Shown: positions 4,520-27,735 of the stretch, piece after piece
Layout of the letters: each line of letters starts with the position of its first letter
How positions within the stretch are numbered: position 1 is the stretch's first letter
Assembly: GCA_965195285.1 (NCBI GenBank)
Contig: CBDAFS010000030.1
Location: forward strand, 18,967-82,966
Reading direction: 5' to 3'
Length of the DNA stretch: 64,000 bases
Source of the DNA: an uncultured Aminicenantes bacterium
GTDB lineage: Bacteria; Acidobacteriota; Aminicenantia; UBA2199
Notes under the pieces: generated by a model
The model's database searches: none
Seen by the model: the letters and a program-made list of their open reading frames with translations, nothing else
What the model was told of the DNA's origin: nothing
Made by a program: the position numbers and the translations under genes

Positions 4520-4954
4520 CTAATATGAATGGGGGAAAAGACAATAGCGACAATAAGGTTGTTTGCTGTAAAGAAAAACCAAATGGAAGCAAAAAATTTG
4601 CAATTCACCTCCTGCTATACGACCAACCCCAGCTGATAATTGAATTGAAATTTTTGTTCCATAATCAGGAACTGATTCTGCAAGTTCATTTAACCATTTT
4701 ATATGTAATCTATCATCAACAAATAAATGACGTGTTCTGATTGTATTAGGAATTTGCTCAAATTCCCTTGTTGTTCTGGTAAACCCTACTCTAATAAGAC
4801 CTACACCACCTTTAGCTCTTTCCACAAAGTAGTCAATACCTCTTTGGGATAAACTGCCATCAGAATTGACTAAACCACCAATACCCATTGGAGCCATTGT
4901 AATACGGTTTTTTATTTTAAGATTCCCTATTTCCCCTGGTTCAAATAATTTCAT
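4520..4954 (-). pseudogene. Truncated old-yellow-enzyme / NADH:flavin oxidoreductase (N-terminal ~120 aa only)
   Basis: LFEP..IGNL.IKNRI.MAPM, YF.ERAKGGVGLI, K..IQL..G.GR, then similarity ends. Full-length members are over 350 aa. Confidence 0.75.
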
Positions 4955-5350
4955 AAAAAAATATCTCCAAAATATCTATTTTTAGATTTCTTCTAAGTAG
5001 ATTCAAAGGTATTCCACTTATAGTAGTTAATTCTTCAAGAACTGAATTTCTTGAATAAAGTTTCTGATTGCACATGAATTTTTTTTTGCTCCTCTTTTAT
5101 ATTTATTTCTGATATTACCTGATTAATCATCGTGATTTCCTATTTAGTATATTTATAAGAATACAGTTTAATTAAAACATCTTGTTTTTGAATTTTATTA
5201 AGCCTTTGTAATATATTCCAAAAATAAAGATGCACTAAAACTAACACAATATCCAATTTCATACAAAGATTATCAATCTATTATAAAAACTTCTTAATCA
5301 TTAGAAACGAAAACAGGAATAGCAATTCTAATCATAATACGACAATTATA

Positions 5351-7807: not shown

Positions 7808-8221
7808 TCAGGATTTCATTTTTTTATTAATAAGTCTAATGTTTATTAAATGAAAAATAATAAAGGCAAAAAGAACTCCAATAATATTGAATATGGAATC
7901 TATTATATTAAATCGTCTACCGGGAATAATTTGATGATAAAACTCGATAAAAAAGGCAAAACCGATACCAATGATAAGAAATAAAATCAAGGACTGTAAA
8001 TTTTGTTTGGGTTTGTCGTTTATAATCCATAATAAAAATAATATCGACAGGATAAAAAATTCAAGAAAGTGGATGAGATAGTCGAGACGGATGGTAGTAC
8101 CTCCTGAAGTTTTGATCTTTGGAGTAGGAAGCTGGGGAAGAGAAGAAGCGATGAAGATGAGAATGAGCCAGGTGAAGAAGAGAAGTTTTGAGTTTTGTTT
8201 AATAAATTTGAGTAAGATCAT
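7808..8221 (-). CDS. VanZ-family membrane protein
   Basis: D..IHF.EF, E..Q..IPGR..S/N..D...N..G motifs. Start moved to MILLKF because the track's extension reads repeat DNA. Confidence 0.75.
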   Translation of the reverse strand: MILLKFIKQNSKLLFFTWLILIFIASSLPQLPTPKIKTSGGTTIRLDYLIHFLEFFILSILFLLWIINDKPKQNLQSLILFLIIGIGFAFFIEFYHQIIPGRRFNIIDSIFNIIGVLFAFIIFHLINIRLINKKMKS

Positions 8222-8227
8222 TTTATT

Positions 8228-8460
8228 AACATTGAATAATGAATATCGAATAACGAACACCGAATATCGAAGGAAAGAAATATCTTACAAACCTTGAAAT
8301 TTAAACATCGAACAAAGAATAATAAATGTTGAAGGAAAAGAATCATCTTGAAAACATTGAATAATGAATATCGAATAACGAACACCGAATGTTGAAGGGA
8401 AAAAACATATTATTCATAGTGAATCATGAATATCGAATATCGAATAGCGAAGTGAAAAGG
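8228..8460. repeat. Heptamer tandem-repeat arm (GAATATC/GAATAAC/GAACACC family), left arm of cassette 1
   Basis: gaataat gaatatc gaataac gaacacc gaatatc block occurs twice, plus a third degenerate block. Confidence 0.9.
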
Positions 8461-8461
8461 C

Positions 8462-8833
8462 TCATTTTATATTATCATGTGCTGTTTTTATACTGGAAAC
8501 AAAAATTGAAATCAGTTCATTGCATTCGAGTATAAGATCATCTACTTTATCGGAATGTTTAACAAGCGGTTTCCTTTTAATAATTTTCAGTGCAATGTAT
8601 GTTTCTCTCAATTCCTTGAGTGCGATTTTCATTTTATGGATAAAATCTTTTCCGGACTCTGCACTCTGGGCCTCACCATATATTAAAGCAGGAGCAGTTC
8701 CGGACCTGATTATTTGACCTCCGATATAATTTCCATTTCTTGTATTTGGCAACTGTTCAGCTAAACTTAATATATTAACAGAAAAAGAAATCAATCTTTC
8801 TTCCAAATCATATTTTTTTTTCTCATCAATCAT
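8462..8833 (-). CDS. Four helix bundle protein (TIGR02436 / 23S rRNA IVP / bAvd-like)
   Basis: DLEER...F, Q..RSGT.....Y.EAQ.AES..DF.HK..IALKEL.ET, E..EL..I. Confidence 0.9.
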   Translation of the reverse strand: MIDEKKKYDLEERLISFSVNILSLAEQLPNTRNGNYIGGQIIRSGTAPALIYGEAQSAESGKDFIHKMKIALKELRETYIALKIIKRKPLVKHSDKVDDLILECNELISIFVSSIKTAHDNIK

Positions 8834-8835
8834 GC

Positions 8836-8970
8836 TTCAAAATTCATTATTCAATTTTTATCTTTTTACATTTCGTCATTCATTATTCATCATTCGATAT
8901 TCGATATTCATTGGTTGATAATACTTCATCATTCCTTGTTCGACATTCGTTATTCGATATTCAAAACTTC
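8836..8970. repeat. Inverted heptamer arm (GATATTC/CATCATT family), right arm of cassette 1
   Basis: cattatt catcatt cgatatt cgatatt and cgacatt cgttatt cgatatt are the reverse complement of the left-arm units. Confidence 0.9.
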
Positions 8971-11094
8971 TTATCTCTTGATTGAATCTTGCACGGCAAA
9001 AGTAGCCAGAGATGAAGCATAGAGTTCGTCGAAAGGAATGGGAGAGTGAGAACCGGTTTGGATGGCATTGAAGAAAGCCAATAATTCCTGTTGATGACCC
9101 CGATCCGGTCGTCTCAGCCTGAAAGAAGAGATTTTATTACCGTAAATCTTCATGGATTTGAAATCATTGATGGTCACCGATTGTCCGCTGCAGAAAATTT
9201 CCAAGTATTCGGCCGGCAACCGTCTATGTCCGTTGGAATAGTAGCTGATGGTGGCGATGCTGCCATTGTCAAAACCCAGGCTGATCACCAAGGTATCCTG
9301 AAGGTGAGCCGGATCTCTCAGGCTCTTGGCCGAAATGGATGAGACCTCGCCACCGGACAGGAAGATGACCAGATCCACAAACTGACACACTTCACTGATG
9401 ATTACCCCGCCACCGGTTTCGGGATCATGCACCCAATGGTCTTTGGGAAATTTTTCGCCATTGATCCGGTAATTGATAGCCTTTGGTTTTTCCGGAGGAA
9501 ACAGTTCTTTTGCCTTTTGAATAAAGGGAGCAAAGCGGCGGTTAAAACCTGCCATCAGAACAGGAAGCGGCTGGCTGCGGTTGACCAATAGCCGGTGGGT
9601 TTCCCAGATGCGTTTCAGGTCATCCTTGGTCATGGCCAAAGGCTTTTCTACAAATACATGCTTGCTCATGGTCAGGGCCTTGACAACAAATTCCGCATGG
9701 AGATCGTTTCGGGTGGTGATAAATACCGTGTTGATACGGTCATCGGCAATGATCTCATCGGCATTGCCGGTACTGTAGGCAAAGCCGTATTTGTCAGCTA
9801 CCTGGCGGGCATTGTGGCTTCGGGCCGTAATCACCCCCACCAGATTGCAGTGTTTCCGGATAAACGGTAAAATCGTTTTGCGGGCAAATCCTCCGGCACC
9901 GACAAATCCCACGGCCGGATCGACCGGGTCGGTTGGTTTTTCCTTTAAGGTTACTTTTTTGGAAAGTTCCTTTTCGCTGTCATAATCAATCACCACGCCG
10001 CAAAAAGGCTCGGACCGGCTGAGGATCATGGTGTAGATCTCCGGGGTATCCACCAGGGGAACCGTATGGGAAATCAATTGATCCACCTGTAATTTCTTAT
10101 TATTCAACAATTCAATATAAGATTGCAGATTGCGGTTTTCGGTCCAGCGCACATAGCCGATGGGATAATCCTTTCCCCTTATTTCATAAAAGGGATCTTG
10201 GCTGCCGGGTCCGTAGCCGCAGGACATACGCAAATCCAACTCTTTACGGAAATAGGGTTTACGGTCAAAACCGGTGGCTACTTTTCCGATCACCACCACT
10301 TTTCCTCGCTGGCGACACAATAGCCCGGCCAGATTCACCGGATCGGTGGTGGTGGAATCCGCAGCGATAATGACCGCATCCACCCCGTTTCCCTGAGAAA
10401 TTTCGGAAACGATGTTTTCCAATTCCGGATCAAGGAAATTCAGGGCAGTTATGGTTTTCAAGCCGGCCAACCCATTTACCCGGGCTTTATCACTGTCAAC
10501 TCCTATCACATCCACGCCGGCTGCCTGCAATACCTGGATGACCAGCCGGCCGATCAACCCCAGTCCGATCACCACCGCCTTCTCGCTCAGGCGCAGATCA
10601 GCCTGGCGCACCCCCTGAATGGCAATAGCGGCAATCCCCGCAAAGGCAGCCTGTTTCAAATCGTTTTTCCCGGGGATCTTCACACAGAGGTTCCGGTTGA
10701 CTGCCACCACATCGGCATGCCATGCCCCTTTTCCTGCACAGGCCACTTGATCACCGATTTTGATGTCATTGACCTCGTTGCTGACCGCAATGACTTCTCC
10801 GGAGCAGCTGTTGCCCAGGGTGGAAGATGCTTCAAGCTTGTTCATGACCATACGGTAGGTATCGGCCAAACCGCTCTTCTTGATCTGTTCAATAACCTGA
10901 CTGACCTCGTTTTTTCGGGATATGGCCCGGGCAATATATCCCCCCCGGGCCGCCTTGACCATGTTGCCCTCTTCTCCGCCGCTGATTACCGAATAGTGGT
11001 TTCTCACCAACACCTGGCCCCGGCCTAATACCGGAAAGGGAACTTCCAGAATCCGTATGACACCCTTCATTTTTGTGTAAGTTAGTTGTTGCAC
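8971..11094 (-). CDS. Bi-domain oxidoreductase (Zn-ADH/MDR + Gfo/Idh/MocA), polysaccharide biosynthesis
   Basis: VIGLGLIG, YG PG..D..YE..G.DYP..YVRWTE.RN, VGAGGFA, HVFVEKPLA, GFNRRF. GTG start. Confidence 0.85.
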   Translation of the reverse strand: MQQLTYTKMKGVIRILEVPFPVLGRGQVLVRNHYSVISGGEEGNMVKAARGGYIARAISRKNEVSQVIEQIKKSGLADTYRMVMNKLEASSTLGNSCSGEVIAVSNEVNDIKIGDQVACAGKGAWHADVVAVNRNLCVKIPGKNDLKQAAFAGIAAIAIQGVRQADLRLSEKAVVIGLGLIGRLVIQVLQAAGVDVIGVDSDKARVNGLAGLKTITALNFLDPELENIVSEISQGNGVDAVIIAADSTTTDPVNLAGLLCRQRGKVVVIGKVATGFDRKPYFRKELDLRMSCGYGPGSQDPFYEIRGKDYPIGYVRWTENRNLQSYIELLNNKKLQVDQLISHTVPLVDTPEIYTMILSRSEPFCGVVIDYDSEKELSKKVTLKEKPTDPVDPAVGFVGAGGFARKTILPFIRKHCNLVGVITARSHNARQVADKYGFAYSTGNADEIIADDRINTVFITTRNDLHAEFVVKALTMSKHVFVEKPLAMTKDDLKRIWETHRLLVNRSQPLPVLMAGFNRRFAPFIQKAKELFPPEKPKAINYRINGEKFPKDHWVHDPETGGGVIISEVCQFVDLVIFLSGGEVSSISAKSLRDPAHLQDTLVISLGFDNGSIATISYYSNGHRRLPAEYLEIFCSGQSVTINDFKSMKIYGNKISSFRLRRPDRGHQQELLAFFNAIQTGSHSPIPFDELYASSLATFAVQDSIKR

Positions 11095-11113
11095 AGGTAA
11101 TCTCTCATTTCTT

Positions 11114-11181
11114 TAGTAAGTAGTAGGTAGTAAAAAGTAGGTAGTAAGAAGTAGGTAGTAAGAAGTAAGTAGTAAGAAGTA
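11114..11181. repeat. Heptamer arm (AGTAAGA/AGTAGGT family), left arm of cassette 2
   Basis: tagtaag tagtagg tagtaaa aagtagg tagtaag aagtagg tagtaag aagtaag tagtaag. Confidence 0.92.
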
Positions 11182-11211
11182 AAAAAATAAACGATTTTCT
11201 GAAGACAATAT

Positions 11212-11601
11212 TTACTCCGTAATAATGCAAAACTTTTCAGGCTTATTTATCATTCCAAAAAGAATTCTTCCGAGTTCCTGATATTTTTCATACAATTTCG
11301 TATGCTTTTCTTCCTGAAGATATCCATGTTTGAAAGCAAAATCCAGCCATACTTCTGTCTCACTTGCTTCTCCGATCGAATCGGTTAATTTTAAAACAAA
11401 AGATTTCGGATATCTTCGCTTCGCCCATGCTTCAGTAATGTTAGCGGAAACAGATCGTGATGATCTTCTGATCTGATCAATTAAAGAATATTTTTCTTCT
11501 TTTGGAAAAGTTTTACTGATGTTGAAGATTTCAACCGCTAGATCAAAACTCAACTGATATGCAATCAGATCTCTGTAACCCCGATACATAGTTTTTTCCA
11601 T
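11212..11601 (-). CDS. Four helix bundle protein (S23/23S rRNA IVP family, bAvd-like)
   Basis: YRDL..YQ, FPKEEKYSL.DQIRRSSRSV.ANI.E, GE..ET..WL.FA...GYL. Confidence 0.92.
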   Translation of the reverse strand: MEKTMYRGYRDLIAYQLSFDLAVEIFNISKTFPKEEKYSLIDQIRRSSRSVSANITEAWAKRRYPKSFVLKLTDSIGEASETEVWLDFAFKHGYLQEEKHTKLYEKYQELGRILFGMINKPEKFCIITE

Positions 11602-11605
11602 TATG

Positions 11606-11705
11606 TACTTCTCACTCCCTACTCCTTACTTCTTACTTCTTACTTCTTACTTCTTACTCCTTACTTCTTATTGTTTTTTTTCTACTTACTATATACTACA
11701 TACTA
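11606..11705. repeat. Inverted heptamer arm (TCTTACT family), right arm of cassette 2
   Basis: ccttact tcttact tcttact tcttact tcttact ccttact, the reverse complement of the left-arm family. Confidence 0.92.
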
Positions 11706-12857
11706 GATTTTATAAAATTCTTTATACCATTCCACAAATTTTCGAATTCCCTCTTCCACCGGGGTATCCGGCCTGTATCCGGTATCCTTTTCAAGACTGG
11801 TGGTGTCAGCCCAGGTTTCCAACACATCGCCTTTTTGCAGGGGAAGGAAGTTTTTTTTGGCTTCTTTATTCATGGCCTTTTCAATAGCGGTGATGAATTC
11901 CATCAAGTTTACTGGTTTTCCTCTGCCAATGTTATAGATTTTATACGGGGTGAGGAGCGAGAGGTCGGAGGTGAGGGGCTGGGAGTCTTCGAATGTCGAA
12001 TGATGAATATCGAACGCCGAATTTCGAGTTTTTGATTTTTGATTTACTTCTGAATTCGATATTCGGGATTCGTGATTCGGTGTTCGAAGATTGGGAGTTG
12101 GTGGTCTGTCCATAACCCGGGTGATGCCTTCGATGATGTCATCGATATAGGTGAAATCCCGGCTCATCCGGCCCTGGTTGTAGACATCAATAGGCCGGTT
12201 TTTAATAATGGCCCTGACAAATTTAAAAGCCGCCATGTCCGGCCGACCCCAGGGACCGTATACGGTAAAAAAACGAAGCCCGGTGGTGGGAATTTGGTAG
12301 AGGTGGCTGTAGGCATGGGCCATGAGCTCGCAGCTCTTCTTGCTAGCCGCATACAGAGACATGGGCTGGTCTACCATATCGGCCGTGGTAAAGGGCATTT
12401 TTTGGTTTAGGCCGTATACCGAAGAACTGGAAGCATAGACCAGATGGTTGATCTCATGGTGGCGGCAGGCCTCCAGGATGTTCAGAAAACCTTGGATGTT
12501 GGAGTCCATATAAGCCTGGGGATTTTGCAAAGAATAGCGCACCCCGGCCTGGGCTGCCAGGTGGCAGACCCGGTCGAATGGTTCTTGTTCGAACAGTTCG
12601 GTTATTTTTTCCCGATCCTCCAGGTTTAATTGGATAAACCGGTAATTGTCAAGAGTCTGGCTTTCCACGGGGATTCCATACTGAATTTTCTCCGAATCGA
12701 TTCCGGTGTCCTTCAGCCGGCCGTATTTCAGGTTGACATCATAGTAGTCATTGATATTGTCCAGGCCTATCAGCGTATGACCACTGTTTGCCATCTGTTT
12801 GACCAGGGAATGGCCGATGAATCCGGCGGTTCCAGTTATTAAGATCTTCAAGGTCAA
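11703..12857 (-). CDS. NAD-dependent epimerase (UDP-glucuronate 4-epimerase, WcaG/CapI-like) carrying an internal insertion
   Basis: ITGTAGFIG, HLAAQAGVRYS, YASSSSVYG, YAASKK, GLRFFTVYGPWGRPDMA. TTG start after AGGAG. Confidence 0.92.
   Translation of the reverse strand: MTLKILITGTAGFIGHSLVKQMANSGHTLIGLDNINDYYDVNLKYGRLKDTGIDSEKIQYGIPVESQTLDNYRFIQLNLEDREKITELFEQEPFDRVCHLAAQAGVRYSLQNPQAYMDSNIQGFLNILEACRHHEINHLVYASSSSVYGLNQKMPFTTADMVDQPMSLYAASKKSCELMAHAYSHLYQIPTTGLRFFTVYGPWGRPDMAAFKFVRAIIKNRPIDVYNQGRMSRDFTYIDDIIEGITRVMDRPPTPNLRTPNHESRISNSEVNQKSKTRNSAFDIHHSTFEDSQPLTSDLSLLTPYKIYNIGRGKPVNLMEFITAIEKAMNKEAKKNFLPLQKGDVLETWADTTSLEKDTGYRPDTPVEEGIRKFVEWYKEFYKI
11986..12090. repeat. 105-bp in-frame palindromic heptamer insertion
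   Basis: TCTTCGAA...TTCGAAGA ends, with cgaatgt cgaatga tgaatat cgaacgc facing gatattc gggattc gtgattc ggtgttc. Confidence 0.85.
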
Positions 12858-13084
12858 GGTCTCCTTATATCATAGGTTAAGGTTGAGGTTAAGGTAAAGA
12901 AAAAAACAGAAAATTTTTCCTGATTATCTCTCTTATTCTTTTCCTTTATCTTTACCTCAGTCATCCAATCTTTCCTGCGGCCTTCGGCCGCCTGGGCTTC
13001 CGCCGGTACCCTTTTTCGGGGTTTACCGGGCCAACCAAAAACAGGCTCAAACTCATCAATCTGGCTCATACTGATGATTTTCAT
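12854..13084 (-). CDS. Possible small hypothetical protein
   Basis: ATG downstream of an extended -10, stop overlaps the epimerase start. C-terminus reads through hexamer repeats. Confidence 0.3.
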   Translation of the reverse strand: MKIISMSQIDEFEPVFGWPGKPRKRVPAEAQAAEGRRKDWMTEVKIKEKNKRDNQEKFSVFFFTLTSTLTYDIRRP

Positions 13085-13102
13085 TTATGGCTCAAGTCAG
13101 GA

Positions 13103-13111
13103 ATTATACCA
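13103..13111 (-). promoter_or_regulatory. Extended -10 promoter (TGGTATAAT) heading the polysaccharide locus
   Basis: Perfect TGnTATAAT on the minus strand. Confidence 0.55.
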
Positions 13112-13140
13112 GAAAACAGTAAAATTGAAAGTGAATTCTT

Positions 13141-14109
13141 CTATCTTCTGAATTTTTTTAATTCCCGCTCAAATCCATCAATCATCAGTTTTATTTCATG
13201 GTTCTCAATGGATTCCAGCATAAAACGCCTTACCATCTGGGAAACCGCCACATAATCCATTTCCACCAGTTCCCCGATCTCCCGCAGCCGCAGGTCACTG
13301 TATTTCTTCAAACCATACAGGAACAGCTTTCGGAAGTGGTTGTTTTTGCGCTTTTTGTACAGCAGCTCTCTTTTAACCCTGAAGCGCCGGCATATGATGC
13401 GGGAGATATCTTCGGGTTGGAGCCGCCTCAGACTCTTCAGGGCCGGTTTTTCCCGGATCTCTCCCATTCTCAGGTCAGCCTCTATCTTGCGGGCAATCTT
13501 TCGGCGAAATTTTTCACCGCCTACGATCGACTGCACCCCGTAGAAATCTTCTTTTTTTATCCCCTCATCCTGATTCAGCAGGTCATAGACATACTTGCGG
13601 TAAAATTTCTTTTTGTTATTAAATTCGCTCAGGAGTTCGGCGGTGACCAGCCATAGCGGCCGTTTTTCTCTGCCGATGTAGCGGGCAAAACTGCTCCAGG
13701 GGTAATCTTCGGGTTTTTTAACCTTACCCTCCCGCAACGGGGTCAGGTGGATGTAAGCGCTCAACCTCATCAAATAACCGTTTTTTTCCACCAGAACGGC
13801 CCGGTAGCGGCCCTGGAAAACCGAGCCCTTGACCCCGTACTTGAGCTTGAACCAGTTTGAGTAGCTGGAGTTTAAATGGTGCATACAGCGGGAGAGATTG
13901 CCCTCCGGGGTTTCGATGAGCATGTGGAAACGATCGTCCAGAAGGGTATAGCAGTGGACCTTGAGGTTGAACTTATCCACCACCTCGCCGGTTTTTTCCA
14001 GGAATTTCAGCCGGTCAACCTTTTCATGAAAAATCTTCTCATGCTTGTCTCCCTGGGACATCACATGGTAACAGGCGCCCTTGTACTCTATACGGGGTTG
14101 TCGAGCCAT
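13141..14109 (-). mobile_element. REP-associated tyrosine transposase (RAYT, Y1 HUH family) with C-terminal HTH; HUH motif degenerate
   Basis: MAR.PRI...G..YHV, G.VFQGRY.A.LVE, YIHL.P, PEDY.WSS. Expected N-H-x-H reads D-R-F-H. Confidence 0.85.
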
Positions 14110-14115
14110 TTGAGA

Positions 14116-14144
14116 AATGTATCACAGTAGATTTTAAATGTCAA
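14116..14144 (-). promoter_or_regulatory. Sigma70 promoter of the RAYT gene (probably leaderless)
   Basis: TTGACA-17 bp-TACATT, with the ATG following after 6 nt. Confidence 0.55.
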
Positions 14145-14242
14145 ATGTTAAGACACGTCCCCAAGAGATTTAAAAGAAAAAGTACTCAGGTTGAGGTTAA
14201 GAAAGAAGGTTAAGGTTGAGGTTGAGGAAAAGAAAAAAACCA

Positions 14243-14440
14243 CTGGTCATTAGAACTCTCTGGGGACTTGTCATTATATCTATCAAGTTCTTGTCATTGA
14301 AACCCTCTGATTTTGGTCATTAAGAACTATCATAACATATCATTACAGTTCTCCAGGGTTCTTTATGACGCACGCATTATGTGCTAATGACAAGCTCTCT
14401 ATAGATCTTAATGACACGAGCGAAGCGAGTAAATGACCAG
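14243..14440. repeat. GTCATT/AATGAC periodic palindromic element, copy 1
   Basis: Five (G/A)TCATT then four (A/T)ATGAC at 22-24-nt spacing, CTGGTCATT/AATGACCAG ends. Confidence 0.85.
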
Positions 14441-14544
14441 ATTAGTGATATTCATCTTCAAAACTTCTTATCTTCTGAACTTCTGTCTCCTTAATTCTAA
14501 GGTTAAGGTTAAGAAAAAACTCTGTTTGTTTTTTTTTATCCTGT

Positions 14545-15876
14545 ATGTTACATTTATTTACGAAAAAGAGGAAACTTTCAGTGGAAGCGGAAAAGGAACT
14601 ATATCAACTCAAACAGGAAAACCAGCGGCTGATGCGGGCCCTGGAAGAAGTGTCTATTTTAAACGAGATTGCCATTGCCATCAGCTCCACCCTGTCCCTG
14701 GACCGGATTCTGGACCTGGTGGTGCAGAAGAGCCTTAAACACATGAAGGCCGAACAGGGGGCGGTGCTGTTGCTGGATGAGAACAAAGAGGAAAAACCCT
14801 TCCAGACCATGATCCGGGGCTGGGATACCACCACCGATACCCTGCCCTTCCGTCTGGACACCCAGCTCACCGGCTGGATGCTGAAAAACCGTCAACCCCT
14901 GCGCATCAATGACTTGAAAAAGGATGAGCGCTTCCACCTGGCCGACCCGGAGACCATTCCCATCCGTTCGCTGCTGTGTACGCCCCTAATGTTGAAAGGC
15001 CGCATGATCGGGTTGGTGACCCTGTTTAACAAAAAATCAGAAGAGGAATTCAGCAGTGAAGACCAGCGCATGATCTCTATCATCGCCGCCCAGTCAGCCC
15101 AGATCATTGAAAATGCCCGGCTGCTCAAAGAGGAACAGGAACTGATCAAGATGCAGGAAGAGCTGAGGCTGGCCTTTGAGATTCAGACCAATCTGCTGCC
15201 GGAAAATCCCCCGGCCATAGAGGGATATGACATATTCGGCAAAAGCATCCCGGCCAAGGAAGTGGGGGGGGATTATTTTGATTTTATCCCGGACCGTGAA
15301 ACCCAGCTGGTTTTCTGCCTGGGAGACGTGTCGGGCAAGGGCATGGGAGCGGCCCTGCTCATGGCCAATCTGCAGGCCACCATCCGGGGCCAGTCCCAAC
15401 TTGACCTGTCCATACCCGAATGCATGGGAAACGCCAACCGGCTGCTGTTCCGCAACACCAGCCCTGAGAAATTTGCCACCCTGTTTTACGGCTGGCTGGA
15501 TTACCGGAATCATGAACTCCGTTACTGCAATGCCGGCCATAACCTGCCCATCCTTATGACGGAAAAAAAAGATTTCCAGCTGCTCAGTGAAGGGGGAATC
15601 ATCCTGGGCTGCCTGGAAGCCGTGAGCTTCGAGGAACAGAAAATCCCCATCCGGACCGGAGATATCCTGCTAATCTATTCGGATGGCATCACCGAGGCCC
15701 TGGATGACCATGATCAGGAATTCGGCGAGGCCAGGCTGATGGAGTTGCTGAAGGAAAATATTGCTAAATCCGCCGTAGAGATGATCGACACCATCATTGA
15801 CGGGGTCACCCGTTTCAGCCGGGATGCGCCCCAGACCGATGACATGACCCTGATGATCATCAAACGTATCGGTTAA
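14545..15876 (+). CDS. GAF + PP2C (SpoIIE/RsbU-like) serine phosphatase
   Basis: GAF region, then EVGGDYFD, GDVSGKG, NAGH, YSDGITEA, DDMT. Confidence 0.9.
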   Translation: MLHLFTKKRKLSVEAEKELYQLKQENQRLMRALEEVSILNEIAIAISSTLSLDRILDLVVQKSLKHMKAEQGAVLLLDENKEEKPFQTMIRGWDTTTDTLPFRLDTQLTGWMLKNRQPLRINDLKKDERFHLADPETIPIRSLLCTPLMLKGRMIGLVTLFNKKSEEEFSSEDQRMISIIAAQSAQIIENARLLKEEQELIKMQEELRLAFEIQTNLLPENPPAIEGYDIFGKSIPAKEVGGDYFDFIPDRETQLVFCLGDVSGKGMGAALLMANLQATIRGQSQLDLSIPECMGNANRLLFRNTSPEKFATLFYGWLDYRNHELRYCNAGHNLPILMTEKKDFQLLSEGGIILGCLEAVSFEEQKIPIRTGDILLIYSDGITEALDDHDQEFGEARLMELLKENIAKSAVEMIDTIIDGVTRFSRDAPQTDDMTLMIIKRIG

Positions 15877-15912
15877 ACCAAAGATATTTTTGATATAAAT
15901 GGGGAGGATATC

Positions 15913-16695
15913 ATGTATATGCGTTTGCTTCAATTAAAAATTAAACCCGAAGGCCTTGAACTGGCCCAACATTATTACAAAGACACGGTGGTGCCCCGGT
16001 TACGCACCATGCCGGGATGCCGGTTTGCCCGGCTGATCCAGAACCACTCCGAGCCCAGTGATTTGATATCCATGACCCTGTGGGAACGCCGGCAAGATGC
16101 CGAGGCCTTCCAGCAGAGTCCGGTCTTCAAGCAGATGATGGCCGAGTTTTCCGTATTTTTAGCCGATAGTTCGGTCTGGAAGATACAGTTGAGCCAGAAG
16201 CTGGAACTGGAATACCGGCCCAAAACCCAGGAACCGGTGACCCAGGCCTTCCCGGTATCCACCCAGAAAATCCTGGTCAAGCCGGAAAATTGCGTATCTT
16301 CACCTCTGTTTGTGCGCATTGTCCAGCATAAGATCCAGCCGGGTAAAATGGAAGAATTCCGGAAACTGTACCGGGAAAGCATTATTCCCGTTCTGGAAAA
16401 AACCCGGGGCTGCTGTTCGGCCTATCTGATGGAAAACATGCAGAACGGCGAAGAAGTGGTGTCCATCACCGTCTGGGAAAACCAGCGGGCTGCGGAAGAT
16501 TATGAACAGAGTGGACAGTTTCAGGTATTGATCGACCGGGTCAAACACTGCTACACACGGCTCTTTCAGTGGAAAATGTCTTTGGCCCAAAATGGGGAAA
16601 AGCAGGCCAAGACCAGCGATGATATGCAGGTGGATCATTACACCGTGGTTTCAGGGGAGGAGTTTGGGGATTCACCAACAAAAAACAGGACTTAG
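15913..16695 (+). CDS. Tandem antibiotic-biosynthesis-monooxygenase (ABM) domain protein
   Basis: Two repeats of ...P.L...PG/RGC....L......IS.T.WE....AE.F/Y..S. Confidence 0.75.
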   Translation: MYMRLLQLKIKPEGLELAQHYYKDTVVPRLRTMPGCRFARLIQNHSEPSDLISMTLWERRQDAEAFQQSPVFKQMMAEFSVFLADSSVWKIQLSQKLELEYRPKTQEPVTQAFPVSTQKILVKPENCVSSPLFVRIVQHKIQPGKMEEFRKLYRESIIPVLEKTRGCCSAYLMENMQNGEEVVSITVWENQRAAEDYEQSGQFQVLIDRVKHCYTRLFQWKMSLAQNGEKQAKTSDDMQVDHYTVVSGEEFGDSPTKNRT

Positions 16696-17206
16696 GTTAA
16701 GGTAAAGGTAAAGGTTGAGGTTAAGGTTAAGAAAAAAAATAAAACTATTAAAACCTCCTTAATTTTCATATCTCTTTACCTTTACCTTTGCCTCAACCTT
16801 AGAATTAAGAAGTCAGGAGATAGAAATCCGAAATCCCAAATTCTAAATCCGAAACAAAGAGATTATTAATAAACATTGAATGATGAACACCAAATATTGA
16901 ATGATGAATATCGAATAACGAACACCGAATATCGAAGGAAAGAAATATCTTACAAACCTTGAAATTTGAACATTGAACAAAGAATATCGAATGTCGAAGG
17001 AAAATAATCATCTTAATTAACAGTGAATGATGATCACCGAATGTCGAATCATGAATGTCAAAGTGAAAGATTCATTTTTTTTTACACTTCATCATTCCTT
17101 GTTCGTTATTCATTATTCGAAATTCAAAATTAAATACTATTTTCCTTTACCTTAACTTTTGCCTTTACCTTTACCTTTACCTTTACCTCTACCTTTACCT
17201 TTGCCT
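16693..17206. repeat. Nested repeat mosaic between convergent genes (hexamer arms, AAATCCG heptamers, empty GAATATC cassette)
   Basis: (AGGTWA)n at left, (TTACCT)n at right, heptamer blocks inside. Confidence 0.9.
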
Positions 17207-20200
17207 TTATTTTACCTTTAGTTCAAAGCTCTGTGAATGGCTGTTAAACTCCGGGGCATACATGCATTCGATGTGGGCCATGCCGCTCTGAAACCGGCCC
17301 CGGTGTACCACCCGAAGGGAATATTCAAACACATAGGTCCCCTTGGGCAGGTAATCAATGAAAAAATGGGTGGCTGTATCCAGGGTGGATTCGTAATAAG
17401 CCAGTCCGTCCTGGAACTTATATCGGGATAGCACATTCACCGGTTCCAGGCCGCTGCCCCGATGGTCTTTCATATGGACATACTCCATATCCCGGTCGGT
17501 TCGCAGCTCGATCCGGACCACTAACAGATCACCCACCCCCAGGCTCCCTTGATAGGGTTCGATCATCGGTCCTTTGTCGGTGAAGCGGCGCACAAACAGG
17601 CGCTTCTTCAGTTTCAGGGGATTTCCGGTATGGGGGGTGATTTTTGAGATATCTTCCAGGTACTGCCAGTGAACCCCGCCCCAGGCAATGCCCTTGTCCT
17701 TTTTGGAAACCGTAATCCGGCCCATATCCGCAATAATATCCCGGGGCTGATAGACCTTTTCATAGTAACCGGTCCCGGCTTCCGGTTTTTCGATTTCCAC
17801 CTTTTGGCCACCCAGGGTGACCTCTACCGGTAAATCCGAAGCCAGCAAGTCGTCTCCCCGCAGCAGCACCGCATACACCGCATCGGCAGTGGCCTTGGTG
17901 GTTTTCCAGTCCCGGGCCTGCTTTTGTTTCAGCAGCCACACCTTACATTCCTCAACAGCCTGGTGGTCTCCCATTACTTCATCAAAGGCCTCGATCATCA
18001 CGGCCTGGGTTTCGATGGGAGCCCGGAACCACCACCAGGACAGTTCCGTTTCCCGCCAGTAACGGCCTAATTCCTCATTGAACCGGCTCCTTTCCTTGAT
18101 GGAATGCATGATTTTACGGGCAGTTACCGAATCCCCGAAGCGGTTCAGGGCCAGGGCCAGCTGGGCCTGATTCTGGCGATGGCTCAGCTTCAGCCAGTAC
18201 TCACGGGCCTGTTGGAGAAAATAATCCACGGCTTTCTGGTATTTTGAAGAAAGCGGATGCTTTTTCAGATAATAACTGCGGCCGTACAGGTACAGGGCAA
18301 CCCGGGAACCCAGATTATTGGATTTCAGATGTCCCCTGGACACAATACGGTTGTAGACTTCCAGGATCCGGTTATCCAGGAACCGGATGGCTTTTCCGGT
18401 CAGGTCAAGGGGAATGTCATCCACGCCCAGGTGTCGGAGCCGGCCGAAACCGGTAACAATATAGAGAGTAATATAATGGTTACCCGGTCCCCCCGGAAAC
18501 CAGGGCCAGGAGCCATCACTCAGCTGCATGTCTTCTAATTTCAGGTAGGCGCGTTTCAATTCCCGGTCCAGTCGGTTTTCATCGAAGAGCAGGCCGACCC
18601 GGTGTTTGGCCTGGGTTTCATTTTGGGCCTGCCTCACCCAGGGGCTTTCCCGCAACAACACACTTTTCAGATCCGGGTTTTTTTCCAGGTTGGACTTCAG
18701 AGCCCCGCTTGCCTTCCAGCGGTTAAAAATCCGGTGGATTCGGGGATCGGAATGGGCGATGTGGCGGGCCAGGCCATTGGCATAGAGCCGGTTGAATACC
18801 TGCTCGGAACACTCATGGGGAAATTCCATCAAGTAAGGCAGGGCCTGGACCGCATACCAGGCCGGATTGGAGGTCATCTGAACGGTCAGTCCTTTGTGAA
18901 CCAGGGTTTTAGAGCCGGAGGAAAGGGACAGTTTTCTGAACTCGAACCGTTTTTCCCCCTGCTTGCTGATCCACAGGGGTATGGATTCCCGCACCAACAG
19001 CCGGCGGCTCAAAACCGGCAGAACTCCCTCTTCGCCGTCAGAATATTCTTCAGTGGCACCCACGGCCCGGAAAGCCACCATATCCAACCCATCCGGGACC
19101 TTAATCCGGAATCTCAGGGTCCGGGACTGTTTGGAGGGGATGGAGAAGGTCTGGTCTTTATCCCGGTTGTTCAGGGAATCATCCAGGGAGGTTTCATTCT
19201 GTGGATTAAAAAATTGGAGCCTCAATGACCCGCTTTCCGGTTTATCCGACATATTGGTTACCTTTACGGTGAATTCGAGCTCATCACCCTCCCTTAAAAA
19301 CCGGGGCGGGTTGGGCTGGACCATGAGGTCCTTGCGGGTTATGGAGCGGCCTTCGATGCTGCCGTATTTCATATCAATGGTATGCGCAAAACCGATAAAC
19401 CGCCATTCGGTCAGGGCTTCGGGCATTTTAAATTCAATGGTCACGGACCCGTCCCCGGCGGTCTTCAGATGGGGATAAAAGAAGGCGGTTTCATTTAAAT
19501 TCTTTCTGGCCTGGACTTTGGAAAGATCAATTTTTTTTCCACCCTTATCCCTGTCTCCATTTCGTTTTGTCTCCTTTATGGTGGCATCCTTTCCTCCGGA
19601 AACTCCGTTAATATCTTCGTATGACAGCACCAGGGCCTCCCCAAGCGCTTTACTGAACATTTCTTCGGGCCTTAACACCTTCTGTTTGCTGACATGTCGT
19701 CTGGACCCGTACTGGTAACCGAAGAGGCTCTGGATCACCTCTTGGGGAAAGTGCGCATAATTGGCTGCTGAATATGAATAGCGGACATTCAGGCGGTTGA
19801 TAAAATTTGAGAAATCAATCCCTTGGTTGGAAAACCGCAAACGCAGGGAAGTACTGTCCGCATCGAAAAGGTTTGAAAAACCCTGAAAAAAATGGGGATA
19901 GTACTGGTCCAGTGACACATCATAGAGGGTGGCCACCATTTCCGCGGCCCTGATTTCAGAACCCGGACCCTTGATCTTAAGAGACCAGGTTTCCTTCTGG
20001 CCCGGTTCCAGGGTGGAGCGGAAGGTCTGCCACTGGAGTTGCAGTTGTTTGTTATACCAGGGCACATAGACCCGGGTGGTGGTTTGATACTGGCGATTCT
20101 GCTTGACCAGGGTGGCTACCAGGGTAAATCCACCCCGCAATTTTTCATCGATGGGAATCCTGATCAATCCCTGGGTCTGGCCCGGAGAAGTCCAGGATTT

Positions 20201-23200
20201 TTTCAGCCATTGGTTATCCTTGAATATTTCAATCAGCACCGGTCCCTGTTCATAACCGGTCCCCCACAGGGCTTCGAAGGTCTCACCTACCGGCAGCACC
20301 GCCTGTTTAACGGTAAAATAAAAAGGCAGTTTTACTGGAAAATGTTTTTTATCCTTCTGGTGAACTAAAAAATGCAAATAGGCCCGTACCGGGTTTCCAT
20401 ACCGGTCCTGGCTGGTCAGACAGGCCCGGTATACCCCCGGTTTTAGTTTGGCTTTCACTTCACAGGCATGACCGGAATTTTCTGAAGTCCGGAAAGCCTG
20501 TTTGAATACCCGGCGGCCCGAGGGCCATTTTTTCCAGTCCGGGGAATCTCTGAAGTTTCCCGGCTGGTCCGGAGAAGCGATTTCCATCTCCCGAATACCC
20601 ACTTCACCAATCAGGTCGCGGGGAACAGGTTGTGAAGGCCCTTGCAAGGCGAAAATCTCAACGTTTCCCACAGCCCCTGTTCGCTGACCATTGAGATTGA
20701 TGGTATTGACAGTAATGCATACCGGGCGGTCCTGTTCCTGCCAGTTCTGGCAATTCAGGGAGGCTTCCATTGAGGTATAACCCAAGCGTACCCGGGTTTC
20801 ATCCCCCCTGGTCTCCCCTGCCCCATCGGTCACTTCAGCCTGGAGTTTAAATGAAAAAACCGGTTGGCTGGAACGAGGTAGGCTGAGATCAGGCCGGGCC
20901 CTGAAGGTAATACAGAACTTACCGCTTTTATCGGTTTTCAGGGTACCGTGGATGATTTCCCGGGCTTCAGCCCGTTGTGGCCCCCTGTGCCAGTAATACC
21001 ACCAGTTGGGGAAGCGGACTTCACGCACCACCCGGTAACTGACCCGGGCATGGTCGATGGGGGCCCCGGTGTAGCTGCGAGCCTCACCGCAGACCGTTAC
21101 CCGGTCATTCAGGCGGAACTCACGGTCGGGCAGCTTCAGATCGACCTGAAACTTGGGCCGTTTATAGGCTTCCACCCGGATGGCAGTAACACCCCGGGGA
21201 GAATCGGCAACCAGGGTCATCCGGCCGGTCAGACGGTCCCGGGGAGCCATGAAGGTTCCACTGAAACTGCCAAAATCATTGGAAACCAGTTTCTGCCGGG
21301 CAACTTCCTGGTTGTTGACATCCCGAATACTGACTCCAACCCTCTGGTTGGGAAAAACCCGGTAATTATGAGTCCGGGGATCCAGCTCCAGGCAGATGCC
21401 CTTGAAGCTGATCATTTGACCCGGGCGGTAGAGTGAACGATCGGTGAAGAAAACGGTTTTAAAGCTCCGTTTTTTATGAATTGAATGACCGGGGGAAAGC
21501 CCGGTATCGCAATATAATCCGAGCCGGTCGGAGGTTATTGTCACCAGGCGGTTGTAATTGGTTTCAGACCCGCTTTTTTGTTCCCTGAAATATCCCCTCG
21601 TATCGGTATGCAGGAGCTGTTGTTCATGATATGCCCGGGACTGATAGTCGTAACGGTAAATCCTGACCGCTGCCCCGGAAGCGGGCGTACCGGAAACCGC
21701 ATCCAGGACATAACCTTCAAAAATTCGATTTCGACCCCGCAGTACCAGGGCCACCCGGCTGACCCAGAGCGGGCTGCTCTGGATTTTATTGGAAGTATCG
21801 TTAAAATCCTCTTTATAACTGGCCAAAATCCGGTAAAAACCCGGGCTCATGGCCGGGACCTCAACAGACTGCTTCCGGCTCTGGTAATCCTCGGTAGGCT
21901 TCAATGAAACCGACCATTCTGCCATTGGTTTTTCAGTCAGCATCTGCCGGAGTACTGATTCGGGTAATCGGTTAAACTGTTTTTTATTTTTCCCCTGGAG
22001 ATAGTCTTGCAAGTTGTCCCGGACAATTCTGAAGTTCACTGTCCGGATATTTTTATATTCCACTGTGAACCAATAAGGTTGATCCGGTATGATGACTTTT
22101 TCAGTCTTCAGATGAAACTGCTTTTCCTTGATCCGGGACAGCAGGGCCAGACAATTCTGTCCACCGCGGGATTTGGAAAAATTTTCATGGCCACGGCTGG
22201 CAATCTTAACAGCCTTTATTAACTTTCCCTGTTTTTTCAACTCATGAGCCCGGTAATAAGCGGCCAGACTTGACAATCGGGAATCGGGATAGCTCGACAT
22301 GATTTCCTGTAACCGCTTGCTATAACGATCGGCTACCGCCTCTCCAACGGCTTCATTTCGGACATACCTGAGGCGGTGAATATCAATATCGATGAAGGCA
22401 TCCCGGGTTTTATCATGCCGGTGAAAAAGCATGAGCTTCTGATAGAGCCGCAGGGCTAAATAACGGGGAGAATCGGTATCAATGGTTTTGATGTTCCAGG
22501 CCATGAATTGGGGGGCCGGGGCCAGGGCCGGGCTATCGGACCGGATATCAAAGGCCTGTTCGGGTCTCGCCGCAACCTGTTCACCGGAACTGTAAAAACG
22601 GAGAGCCTCCTGGGCCACAAAATCATACAGGGTCGGACGCAGGCCAATGGGAAGGCTTCCCTTGACTAAGAAATCGTAATAACGATCAACGGGAATTTTT
22701 TTCAAGCGGTTCTCGTCCTTTAAAACAGCCTTGAAGAGTGAGGAAATCTCATCAAACAATTTTGGCAGGTCCCAGGTGGTAAAATCCTTTTCATTCAGCC
22801 CGGCTGTACGGGAACGGTTCAGAAAACGCCAGCGATTGCGGGAAAAATAATGCCAGTACCACTGGGCCTGCACCACCTGCATCAGGGGTCTCATTTCCGG
22901 CCGGACCTGTTCAATCTCCGCTTTCAGCCGGTTAATTTTTTCCTCGGGCCGGTTGCCCTCGATCACCGATTCCAGAACGATTCGCTGGACAAGGGCCTTC
23001 AGGGCCTCCGCCTGTCGGTTCTGATCCAGAGCCAGATTGTATATGCGGTTCAGGTATTTTATCGCTGTTTTGGGCAGTCCGTCTTTTTCGGCCTGGTTGA
23101 CTTTTTTCCATAACACCCGGGGGTCGGTTTCCCTGATATCTCCCTGCTGGCCGATTCCCTGGGACAGCATCAGGACGATTAAAAAAATACAGATAGTAAT

Positions 23201-23218
23201 AAACCTGAATTTGGTCAT
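17207..23218 (-). CDS. Bacterial alpha-2-macroglobulin family protein
   Basis: Signal peptide, FTDRSLYRPG (MG2), RKNLNETAFFYP, PRFLREGD, thioester motif CSEQ, GSWPWF. Confidence 0.92.
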   Translation of the reverse strand: MTKFRFITICIFLIVLMLSQGIGQQGDIRETDPRVLWKKVNQAEKDGLPKTAIKYLNRIYNLALDQNRQAEALKALVQRIVLESVIEGNRPEEKINRLKAEIEQVRPEMRPLMQVVQAQWYWHYFSRNRWRFLNRSRTAGLNEKDFTTWDLPKLFDEISSLFKAVLKDENRLKKIPVDRYYDFLVKGSLPIGLRPTLYDFVAQEALRFYSSGEQVAARPEQAFDIRSDSPALAPAPQFMAWNIKTIDTDSPRYLALRLYQKLMLFHRHDKTRDAFIDIDIHRLRYVRNEAVGEAVADRYSKRLQEIMSSYPDSRLSSLAAYYRAHELKKQGKLIKAVKIASRGHENFSKSRGGQNCLALLSRIKEKQFHLKTEKVIIPDQPYWFTVEYKNIRTVNFRIVRDNLQDYLQGKNKKQFNRLPESVLRQMLTEKPMAEWSVSLKPTEDYQSRKQSVEVPAMSPGFYRILASYKEDFNDTSNKIQSSPLWVSRVALVLRGRNRIFEGYVLDAVSGTPASGAAVRIYRYDYQSRAYHEQQLLHTDTRGYFREQKSGSETNYNRLVTITSDRLGLYCDTGLSPGHSIHKKRSFKTVFFTDRSLYRPGQMISFKGICLELDPRTHNYRVFPNQRVGVSIRDVNNQEVARQKLVSNDFGSFSGTFMAPRDRLTGRMTLVADSPRGVTAIRVEAYKRPKFQVDLKLPDREFRLNDRVTVCGEARSYTGAPIDHARVSYRVVREVRFPNWWYYWHRGPQRAEAREIIHGTLKTDKSGKFCITFRARPDLSLPRSSQPVFSFKLQAEVTDGAGETRGDETRVRLGYTSMEASLNCQNWQEQDRPVCITVNTINLNGQRTGAVGNVEIFALQGPSQPVPRDLIGEVGIREMEIASPDQPGNFRDSPDWKKWPSGRRVFKQAFRTSENSGHACEVKAKLKPGVYRACLTSQDRYGNPVRAYLHFLVHQKDKKHFPVKLPFYFTVKQAVLPVGETFEALWGTGYEQGPVLIEIFKDNQWLKKSWTSPGQTQGLIRIPIDEKLRGGFTLVATLVKQNRQYQTTTRVYVPWYNKQLQLQWQTFRSTLEPGQKETWSLKIKGPGSEIRAAEMVATLYDVSLDQYYPHFFQGFSNLFDADSTSLRLRFSNQGIDFSNFINRLNVRYSYSAANYAHFPQEVIQSLFGYQYGSRRHVSKQKVLRPEEMFSKALGEALVLSYEDINGVSGGKDATIKETKRNGDRDKGGKKIDLSKVQARKNLNETAFFYPHLKTAGDGSVTIEFKMPEALTEWRFIGFAHTIDMKYGSIEGRSITRKDLMVQPNPPRFLREGDELEFTVKVTNMSDKPESGSLRLQFFNPQNETSLDDSLNNRDKDQTFSIPSKQSRTLRFRIKVPDGLDMVAFRAVGATEEYSDGEEGVLPVLSRRLLVRESIPLWISKQGEKRFEFRKLSLSSGSKTLVHKGLTVQMTSNPAWYAVQALPYLMEFPHECSEQVFNRLYANGLARHIAHSDPRIHRIFNRWKASGALKSNLEKNPDLKSVLLRESPWVRQAQNETQAKHRVGLLFDENRLDRELKRAYLKLEDMQLSDGSWPWFPGGPGNHYITLYIVTGFGRLRHLGVDDIPLDLTGKAIRFLDNRILEVYNRIVSRGHLKSNNLGSRVALYLYGRSYYLKKHPLSSKYQKAVDYFLQQAREYWLKLSHRQNQAQLALALNRFGDSVTARKIMHSIKERSRFNEELGRYWRETELSWWWFRAPIETQAVMIEAFDEVMGDHQAVEECKVWLLKQKQARDWKTTKATADAVYAVLLRGDDLLASDLPVEVTLGGQKVEIEKPEAGTGYYEKVYQPRDIIADMGRITVSKKDKGIAWGGVHWQYLEDISKITPHTGNPLKLKKRLFVRRFTDKGPMIEPYQGSLGVGDLLVVRIELRTDRDMEYVHMKDHRGSGLEPVNVLSRYKFQDGLAYYESTLDTATHFFIDYLPKGTYVFEYSLRVVHRGRFQSGMAHIECMYAPEFNSHSQSFELKVK

Positions 23219-23344: not shown

Positions 23345-23731
23345 AGGTTTAGGTTAAGGTAAAGGTAAAGGTAGAGGTAAAGGTAAAGGTAAAGACGTGA
23401 AACGTAAAGAGTAAAAGGTGAAGACGTAAGGCGTAATACGTAAAGCGTAAAATGTGATTGGTAATTGGTTAACTGTAGGGGCGAATGGAAATTCGCCCAA
23501 TTGTTTATATCGATTTTTCATATTGGTTGTAATAATCATCTCTTTCAGGGCAAACCGCCGTTTGCCCCTACAACAATTTTTCTCCTAATCTAAATTTGTT
23601 TTTGTTTTGAATTTTGGACATTTGAGTTTTGAATTTGTTTCGGATTTAGAATTTGGGATTTCGGATTTGTTTCTTCTGGATTCTTACTTCTGAGTTAAAG
23701 GCAAAGGTAAAGGTAGAGGTAAAGGTAAAAA
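23345..23731. repeat. Nested repeat mosaic (hexamers, ACGTAAA heptamers, REP doublet, CGGATTT heptamers)
   Basis: Directly visible tandem blocks. Confidence 0.9.
23475..23571. repeat. GTAG-family REP doublet (REPIN-like), copy 1
   Basis: GTAGGGGCGAAtggaaaTTCGCCC ... GGGCAAACcgccGTTTGCCCCTAC. Confidence 0.85.
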
Positions 23732-27451: not shown

Positions 27452-27735
27452 AAGATTAACTGAGGAGTTAGAAGACAGAAGAAATAAATCCGAAATTTAA
27501 ATCATTTTAGCTCAGGTTAAGGTAGAGGTTAAGGTTAAGAAAAAAATTGTTGTAGGGGCAAACGGTGGTTTGCCCGAATCAGAAATCTATTACAAATTGA
27601 TCAAAAAAGAATAGGGCGAATTTCCATTCGCCCCTACAGTTAACCAATTACTAATCACATTTTACGCTTTACGTATTACGCCTTACGTCTTTTCCTTTAC
27701 CTCTACCTTTAACTTTACCTTCACCTTAACCTCAG
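27452..27735. repeat. Nested repeat mosaic containing REP doublet copy 2 (27552-27637), inverted relative to the 23.4-kb copy
   Basis: GTAGGGGCAAAC..GTTTGCCC ... GGGCGAA..TTCGCCCCTAC between hexamer arms. Confidence 0.9.

Follow-up and report, generated by a model that had tools for sequence, protein, structure and literature searches.

The stretch of DNA analysed here (the window, 64,000 nucleotides (nt) in length) is C30:18967-82966 of an uncultured Aminicenantes bacterium assembly (GCA_965195285.1; 3.28 Mb, 62 contigs, 42% G+C, 94.9% complete), and it raises the question of why two small genes of the four-helix-bundle family TIGR02436 each lie between inverted arms of degenerate tandem 7-nt repeats. 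A sequence-only reading of the window had proposed that gene and arms form an mRNA cassette resembling the intervening sequences (IVS) of 23S rRNA. On balance, the four-helix gene and its two inward-pointing heptad arrays probably do constitute one heritable, horizontally spreading cassette, akin to the IVS of 23S rRNA that bear an open reading frame (ORF). The idea of a cassette is well supported when judged by comparison with relatives, among which gene and arms travel together and the gene runs with the host operon.

Both genes in the window score above the profile cut-offs of TIGR02436 (24 bits) and PF05635 (33.8 bits), and their arms were recovered by Tandem Repeats Finder (TRF) as well as by inverted-repeat matching, in agreement with the description of two four-helix-bundle genes within inverted 7-mer arms (coordinates and scores in Table 1). 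The genome holds six TIGR02436 genes in total, the other four being on contig C42 with Pfam scores of 91-123 bits, and all six encode basic proteins (isoelectric point (pI) 8.6-9.6). For one of the proteins, the hit ranked second belongs to a 'Candidatus Aminicenantes' genome. Every copy lies between or inside protein genes and none in the 23S rRNA gene (C14:90211-93206), which at 2996 nt vs 2925 model positions has no ORF-bearing insert. Inside the cassettes the four-helix gene is the sole ORF, with no transposase or reverse transcriptase encoded, as had been stated from the sequence, and the whole assembly gave no match to RVT_1.

Arms of this kind are far commoner at four-helix genes than at other genes. 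They were scored as the best ungapped inverted match between the 160-nt flanks of each crude ORF of at least 90 amino acids (aa), with a threshold of 14 set at the 99th percentile of 587 sampled background ORFs; a stricter inverted-repeat scan (mismatch -2) returned mainly insertion sequence ends and only four repeat-armed pairs, the degenerate arms needing the gentler score. Within the genome under study (G000), 32 of 2668 crude ORFs reached the threshold, and all six four-helix genes were among them (scores 14-35). Of the other 26, most are Y1-type transposase genes of ~300 aa whose terminal repeats are unique, four are ordinary ORFs flanked by hexamer arrays, and low-complexity matches account for the remainder.

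Three sets of relatives extend this comparison. The class set covers 40 related genomes, 27 of which carry the family; 54 loci with 65 full-length matches were fetched, and 57 ORFs were recovered, three of them too close to a contig end, leaving 54 that could be scored. A cassette-2 branch set came from a search of single genomes for each species, in which the cassette-2 protein and its nearest paralogue served as queries (80 loci, 51-70% identity), its hosts being spread over at least 12 phyla (Bacteroidota, Desulfobacterota, Chloroflexota, Nitrospinota, Cloacimonadota, Verrucomicrobiota, Ignavibacteriota, Chlorobiota, Planctomycetota and others). A cassette-1 branch set came from metagenome contigs searched with the cassette-1 protein (80 loci, 55-88% identity; control ORFs not scored). 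Genomes of Flavobacterium pectinovorum, Maribacter and Carboxylicivirga are among those that carry related cassettes. Arms were present at 30/54 four-helix ORFs of the class set vs 7/155 other ORFs of the same loci, and at 50/74 scorable loci of the cassette-2 branch vs 14/242 control ORFs, giving odds ratios of about 26 and 34; the cassette-1 branch has them at 55 of its 65 scorable loci. The period of the arms is 7 in 42 of 50 cases in the cassette-2 branch and in 53 of 55 in the cassette-1 branch.

The sequence of the repeat follows the branch of the protein. The motif GAAT occurs at least twice in the 5' arm at 38/55 loci of branch 1 (cassette 1) vs 3/50 of branch 2 (cassette 2), and AGTA at 0/55 vs 22/50. 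Branch-1 arms repeatedly read GAATATC GAATATC GAACAAG GAATGAT GAAG, and the units of branch 2 are AGTAAGG, AGTAGGC, CAGTAAT and similar. With the arms placed in register, the heptad profile of branch 1 is G.83, A.95, A.89 and T.68, followed by three weakly constrained positions, and that of branch 2 is A.81, G.87, T.70 and A.74, again with three weak positions. Each heptad is thus a 3-4-nt core specific to the protein branch plus a loosely constrained spacer. The core is conserved as sequence, since unconstrained non-coding DNA would be unrecognisable at 55-70% protein identity, and the 47 branch-1 loci with a usable left flank represent 31 distinct contexts. A core that is specific to the branch points to probable recognition by the encoded protein, and the difference in cores between branches lends indirect support to a protein that may act on its own repeats.

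The arms are also strictly polar, as had been claimed for the copies in the window. The 5' arm is more than 60% purine in 28 of 39 class-set cassettes (none below 40%, 11 intermediate), in 40 of 50 from the cassette-2 branch (three below 40%, seven intermediate) and in 35 of 55 from the cassette-1 branch (one below 40%, 19 intermediate), so that arm orientation is not random and the pooled count of purine-rich vs pyrimidine-rich core-bearing 5' arms is 103 vs 4. Among the inverted array pairs of the genome, 29 run purine-then-pyrimidine and three the reverse, those three enclosing ordinary genes between two hairpins. A purine-rich arm is, however, 5' on both strands at once, and polarity therefore cannot show which strand folds, so that only the polarity itself was borne out and not the folding strand that it had been taken to indicate. 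Where flanking genes are co-directional, the four-helix gene is oriented with them in 32/36 and 53/56 cases (85/92 in total), and all six copies of the genome are co-directional within polysaccharide loci.

Tandem arrays are abundant in this genome even without a gene: 85 strict 6-8-nt arrays were found vs 2 after shuffling within 200-nt blocks, with 63 of the 85 intergenic and 53 on four contigs (C42, C41, C30 and C16). It could accordingly be supposed that slippage-prone, AT-rich spacers make tandem repeats anyway and that four-helix genes happen to sit there, all the more as ordinary genes can lie between two hairpins. Such coincidence or hitch-hiking is hardly credible against the odds ratios given above, the conservation of branch-specific cores across unrelated contexts and the strict polarity.

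Close relatives differ in the presence of the cassettes. The sister species (G001) is syntenic with window positions 11402-14163, and between the epimerase and the Y1-type gene it carries AGGTTG arms, a four-helix gene and CAACCT arms, where G000 has the same hexamer arms but is empty (12873-12958). At this same site a contig from sequencing run X3 (X2 and X3 are runs with related-strain contigs), whose flanks agree with those of the window at ~97-99% identity, spans 431 nt against 84 in the window, which suggests recent gene loss in G000, though the X3 contig itself could not be read. A second and messier case is a hexamer-armed cassette of G001 where C42:17317-17591 has just a heptamer hairpin. 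An X2 contig keeps cassette 2 but is without exactly 14 nt (two heptads) of the left arm, and in the congener G003, in which the cassette-1 gene aligns nearly identically throughout, its arms measure ~45 + 20 nt vs ~230 + 110 nt here. Arm length changes in either direction in steps of entire heptads, close relatives differ by gain or loss of cassettes, some sites have arms but no gene, and copies are nested in the loops of other hairpins. One further candidate, an X3 contig joint from 8271 to 8939 that would represent a gene-less cassette 1, was not used, as it has 27 letters on its shorter side and could equally be 16866-17130.

It may next be asked whether the arms are maintained as an RNA stem or as DNA sequence. 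The two 70-nt arms of cassette 2 are 80% complementary and enclose the ORF with a stem, and the sense RNA is predicted to fold at -164.7 kcal/mol vs -119.6 ± 5.7 for shuffles (z -7.9), with a ~70-bp stem that takes in the ribosome-binding region and the start codon. In 14/39 cassettes of the class set the 5' arm reaches or extends into the start codon, and the intragenic copy (11986-12090) has predicted folds of -28.1 (z -4.6) in the sense and -44.7 (z -3.7) in the antisense direction. An excess of G·U was sought among the arm mismatches of two sets as the mark of a selected RNA stem, and none was found on the sense strand, with G·U vs A·C counts of 63 vs 78 in the class set, 98 vs 99 in the cassette-2 branch and 161 vs 177 in total. 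The likeness of the arms is therefore kept by sequence or by DNA-level renewal, not by RNA pairing alone; of the 'mRNA IVS-like' cassette that had been proposed, the unit of gene and arms is supported.

These observations have to be set against the explanation that the hairpins arose where they now stand, as signals for the processing or stability of polysaccharide-operon transcripts, with the protein as an RNA-binding regulator and nothing mobile about either. Orientation with the operon, the location of all six cassettes in polysaccharide loci, the predicted stem over the start codon and the precedent of RNase III cleavage in rRNA, as reported in the portion of PMC4990558 that treats it, are all in keeping with a host-serving RNA element. 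The lack of a G·U excess is not, and near relatives carry the same cores in at least 31 unrelated contexts and at least 12 phyla, while sister species, and strains too, differ in whether a site is filled or empty. One copy moreover lies inside a coding region, where cutting of the mRNA would destroy the message, and absence of the cassette from orthologous operons at unchanged gene order, which speaks against evolution in place, is partly seen. This explanation is consequently regarded as unlikely.

Conservation of sequence rather than pairing, visible in the branch-specific core and the similar numbers of G·U and A·C mismatches, would suit a different explanation, in which the heptads are iteron-like sites in double-stranded DNA, the protein acts through them as a repressor or insulator of its own gene and of the neighbours, and the hairpin is incidental. 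The omega repressor of plasmid pSM19035 binds contiguous 7-bp heptads and offers a parallel. On either side of the gene the arrays point towards it, and solo or direct arrays exist, such as C15:62291-62367 and the insert in the G001 epimerase. The four-helix-bundle fold is, however, not known to contain a helix-turn-helix or ribbon-helix-helix motif, and operators would leave the gain, loss and nesting of cassettes, and their presence in the rRNA genes of other bacteria, unexplained. The known relatives (Avd) furthermore act on RNA and polymerase and not as operators, according to the part of PMC6182149 that describes them, and operator arrays are considered improbable.

Under the preferred reading of a spreading cassette, the small basic protein, which resembles pentamer-forming relatives, would most likely bind its own arrays with roughly one subunit per heptad core. 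The cassette-2 protein matches the structures 2rld and 2gsc of the Protein Data Bank (PDB) by sequence, both deposited with five chains, and a title cited in PMC10053308 describes one such structure as assembled from five four-helix bundles. The cassette would be transcribed by read-through, and its arms as RNA could form a long stem burying the start codon; such a stem might be a substrate for the host RNase III, the gene for which is present in the genome, and excision of the cassettes from RNA may be envisaged by analogy with rRNA. A more far-reaching form of the idea, put forward only tentatively and in our view possible rather than probable, is that a four-helix pentamer reads the heptad arrays sequence-specifically, at one subunit per 7-nt unit and through a 3-4-nt core that varies with the protein branch, and together with them constitutes a mobile element that has no transposase, recognises itself and inserts into the loops of hairpins.

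Several results weigh against reading gene and arms as a single mobile unit with its own recognition sequence. The filled and empty states of the G001/G000 site share their arms, leaving the borders of the insertion unreadable and no target-site duplication definable. Between the cassette-1 gene and its G003 orthologue the pN/pS ratio of 0.73, from just 25 changes, indicates weak constraint. Arms were undetected at the threshold in 24/54, 24/74 and 10/65 relatives of the three sets, the controls are ORFs predicted by a crude caller, and the missing G·U excess belongs here as well. The commonest arrays of the genome are hexamers of AGGTWA type (31 by strict pattern, 49 by TRF), and these are without a close cognate gene, the best match in the assembly to the hexamer-armed proteins of G001 being 31-39% identical. 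On C16 (locus L055, positions 4646-5151), inverted hexamer arms enclose a 105-aa ORF (4688-5005) that is not of the four-helix family and has weak zinc-ribbon and DUF983 matches. In the class set alone, the relation between unit similarity and protein identity is weak (Spearman -0.15, Mantel-type permutation p 0.024, n=21) and has p 0.07 when between-genome pairs only are taken. Units within one change of each other were seen in 3/9 pairs at 45-60% protein identity vs 2/179 pairs below 35%, and one pair has the unit AAGTAAG in common with no BLAST match of at least 80 aa between the called ORFs; the relation between core and protein is clear only on comparing the two deep protein branches.

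Among known systems, the IVS of 23S rRNA (Coxiella burnetii helix 45; Leptospira) come closest, with the same protein family in the loop of a long inverted-repeat stem, tandem heptamers near the ORF in strain-variable number and no recombinase encoded, in the description available from PMC4990558. For Coxiella, the same account gives a 28-bp terminal inverted-repeat stem that is cut by RNase III in vitro and, upstream of the ORF, GACAGAT heptamers in tandem, either two or three according to the strain, and it discusses rRNA IVS as selfish or formerly mobile elements (PMC4990558). The cassettes described here differ in lying in mRNA operons, once within a coding sequence, and in having arms that consist wholly of heptads, reach ~230 nt and have a core that follows the protein branch. 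The protein also resembles bAvd of diversity-generating retroelements (DGRs) in being small and basic and in belonging to a related sequence family, PF05635 being described as Avd-like in the relevant part of PMC10053308; the match of the cassette-2 protein to five-chain structures is a further likeness.

It could be asked on these grounds whether the genes are relics of a DGR, namely Avd accessory genes that outlasted the loss of a reverse transcriptase. The matches to the Avd models are weak and below the cut-offs (NF033474, 29 bits vs 80; PF22296, 38 bits vs 40), the genome, 95% complete, has no RVT_1 match, and each of the six copies has its own repeat unit. The repeat output held no template/variable repeat pair, in a survey that included no search aimed at such pairs, and a DGR remnant is thought very unlikely.

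Tandem 7-nt repeats have been recorded in other bacteria. The heptamers of cyanobacteria known as STRR (short tandemly repeated repetitive) sequences are described as tandem, mostly intergenic 7-nt units near start codons, in direct arrays with no associated protein gene. The TAACTGA repeats of Beggiatoaceae are likewise tandem 7-nt units, mostly intergenic and near start codons, and in the parts of PMC4679880 that characterise them they form direct arrays with no associated protein gene, unlike the arrays here, which come in inverted pairs and go with a protein family. The terms 'four helix', 'S23' and 'intervening' do not occur in that article (PMC4679880). Miniature inverted-repeat transposable elements (MITEs), and the repetitive extragenic palindromic (REP) sequences and bacterial interspersed mosaic elements (BIMEs) served by Y1 (RAYT) transposases, resemble the cassettes as intergenic hairpin-forming repeats with filled and empty forms and with nesting, but the arms here are tandem short units rather than a unique terminal repeat, no transposase is encoded, and the terminal repeats that belong to this genome's Y1-type genes are unrelated. 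TRAP, the trp RNA-binding attenuation protein of Bacillus, is a ring protein that reads spaced triplets on single strands. By analogy with TRAP and the omega repressor, a 3-4-nt core at fixed spacing in 4-10 repeats would fit one subunit per repeat, the folds of these proteins being unrelated and the likeness one of analogy only.

A literature search, conducted mostly without subscription journals, returned no paper linking this gene family to heptamer arms outside rRNA. New in the present analysis are the core that follows the protein branch, the two-strand polarity, the orientation with the operon, the change of arms by whole heptads, the filled and empty sister sites and the lack of a G·U excess. 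If gene and arrays are a unit with a branch-specific core, the function of the large PF05635/TIGR02436 family, for which structures have been solved, the rRNA IVS and the heptamer repeats become one testable question, and two proteins with two repeat types (GAA(T)-core and AGTA-core) in one window suffice for a comparison of cognate and non-cognate binding. Should the mobile, self-recognising element prove real, bacterial mobile DNA would gain a new class, and rRNA IVS and bacterial heptamer repeats would be accounted for as well. The cassettes also matter for annotation, since they interrupt operons, give enzymes extra loops and cause assemblies to break at the repeats.

Table 1. Four-helix genes, repeat arms and hairpins of the window (positions as in the window).
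Feature	Position	Strand	Description	Scores and repeat output
Cassette 1 gene	8462-8833	(-)	123 aa, four-helix-bundle protein, pI 8.6	TIGR02436 73.4 bits, PF05635 41.7 bits
Cassette 1 purine-rich arm	8219-8456		Three ~62-nt modules, each ~six GAA-core heptads	TRF period 62 x 3.7 and period-7 arrays
Cassette 1 pyrimidine-rich arm	8859-8966		ATTCATT / TTCGATA heptads	
Cassette 2 gene	11212-11601	(-)	129 aa, four-helix-bundle protein, pI 8.6	TIGR02436 106.6 bits, PF05635 112.1 bits
Cassette 2 purine-rich arm	11114-11187		GTAAGAA / GTAGGTA heptads, AGTA core	TRF TAGTAAG x 9.9 at 11114-11182
Cassette 2 pyrimidine-rich arm	11601-11705		TACTTCT heptads; abuts start codon on sense strand	x 9.3 at 11606-11670
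Intragenic mini-hairpin	11986-12090		105 nt, GAA-core heptads, gene-less, in frame in epimerase gene 11703-12857(-)	
Empty hexamer-armed hairpin	12873-12958		AGGTTA ... CTTTAC, ~40-nt loop; between epimerase and Y1-transposase-like gene	
Hexamer hairpin	16693-16800		AGGTTA/AGGTAA then CTTTAC; first array doubles as outer 5' arm of gene-less copy	Fold -40.4, z -5.8
Gene-less cassette 1 copy	16866-17130		Keeps both arms; without ORF and inner part of one arm	
Outer 3' hexamer arm	17140-17220		Pairs with 16694-16742	TTTACC x 13.7

Filled, empty and intragenic forms of one gene-plus-arms unit are all found in the window (Table 1), as the sequence-only reading had it. A module of cassette 1 reads GAATAAT GAATATC GAATAAC GAACACC GAATGTT GAAGGAA, and its core is carried by both the gene-less and the intragenic copies. 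The gene-less copy, which had been described as an ORF-less cassette 1, is a 93% match to the left arm along 122 nt and a 91% match to the right arm along 44 nt, and it is nested within hexamer arms (AGGTTA at 16694-16731, TTTACC at 17140-17220). The core of cassette 2 recurs elsewhere in the genome in an empty hairpin (C41:17466-17755) and in the solo array on C15 mentioned above. The neighbours of the cassettes in the window are DegT aminotransferase, glycosyltransferase and epimerase genes, and those on C42 are Wzy_C, Bac_transf, Epimerase_2, CpsB and a Wzc-like kinase. Between the two cassettes lies a 707-aa ORF (8971-11094(-)) that combines a half resembling zinc-type alcohol/quinone oxidoreductases with a Gfo/Idh/MocA-type (inositol dehydrogenase-like) half.

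The in-frame miniature inside the epimerase, likewise noticed from the sequence, adds ~30-35 residues to a surface loop relative to the best solved homologue (PDB 5u4q) and to the orthologues of three other genera, from which it is absent. Four epimerase regions were retrieved for this comparison, and three of them entered the alignment. In 20 further related genomes with an epimerase match, the alignment breaks at residues 249-262 in 19, with open frames mostly of 340-372 aa. Only G001 among the relatives has an insert in this loop, of different heptamers in direct orientation: on its contig C265 (locus L029, ~506-663), ~19 direct heptamers of CCAGCCC / CACGAGT type encode a peptide that is duplicated in the translation. 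The JGI metagenomes, searched with a degenerate 29-nt pattern taken from the epimerase, yielded no strain variant.

The Y1_Tnp+DnaA_C gene beside the empty hairpin (13141-14109(-)) was considered as a mobilising enzyme and rejected, there being at least 16 copies of its family with terminal repeats of their own that are unrelated to the heptads; the conserved position next to a cassette reflects no more than ordinary synteny with G001. This family, which joins an IS200-like Y1_Tnp domain to a DnaA_C helix-turn-helix, includes full and partial copies such as C47:23160-24080, C61:47174-48022 and C14:33230-34120, most of them ending in terminal inverted repeats of 25-30 nt that are of GGGGTCAGGTCT or GGGGTGACGGTGCTT type. 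Short derivatives that have a loop of ~154 nt and no gene are found at C15:122687-122889, C53:37423-37626 and C53:42600-42803, and at C3:1313-1830 a perfect 30-nt inverted repeat surrounds an ORF of 115 aa; this ORF matches the Y1-type transposase only in its first 90 residues and looks like a truncated copy.

Three intergenic groups of hexamer or heptamer arrays without four-helix genes lie further along the window (23351-23729, 27514-27732 and 28362-28692), with a 23-nt repeat in 3.4 copies at 28456-28534. A chalcone-isomerase-like gene (27745-28305) and a 2003-aa alpha-2-macroglobulin gene (17207-23218) are each flanked by two array groups. On C42 (locus L058, positions 3488-3760 of C42:20001-30000), four heptamer arrays, AGTTTTG, TTCTATC, TTTCGAA and TGAACCC, adjoin one another with no partner arm identified nearby.

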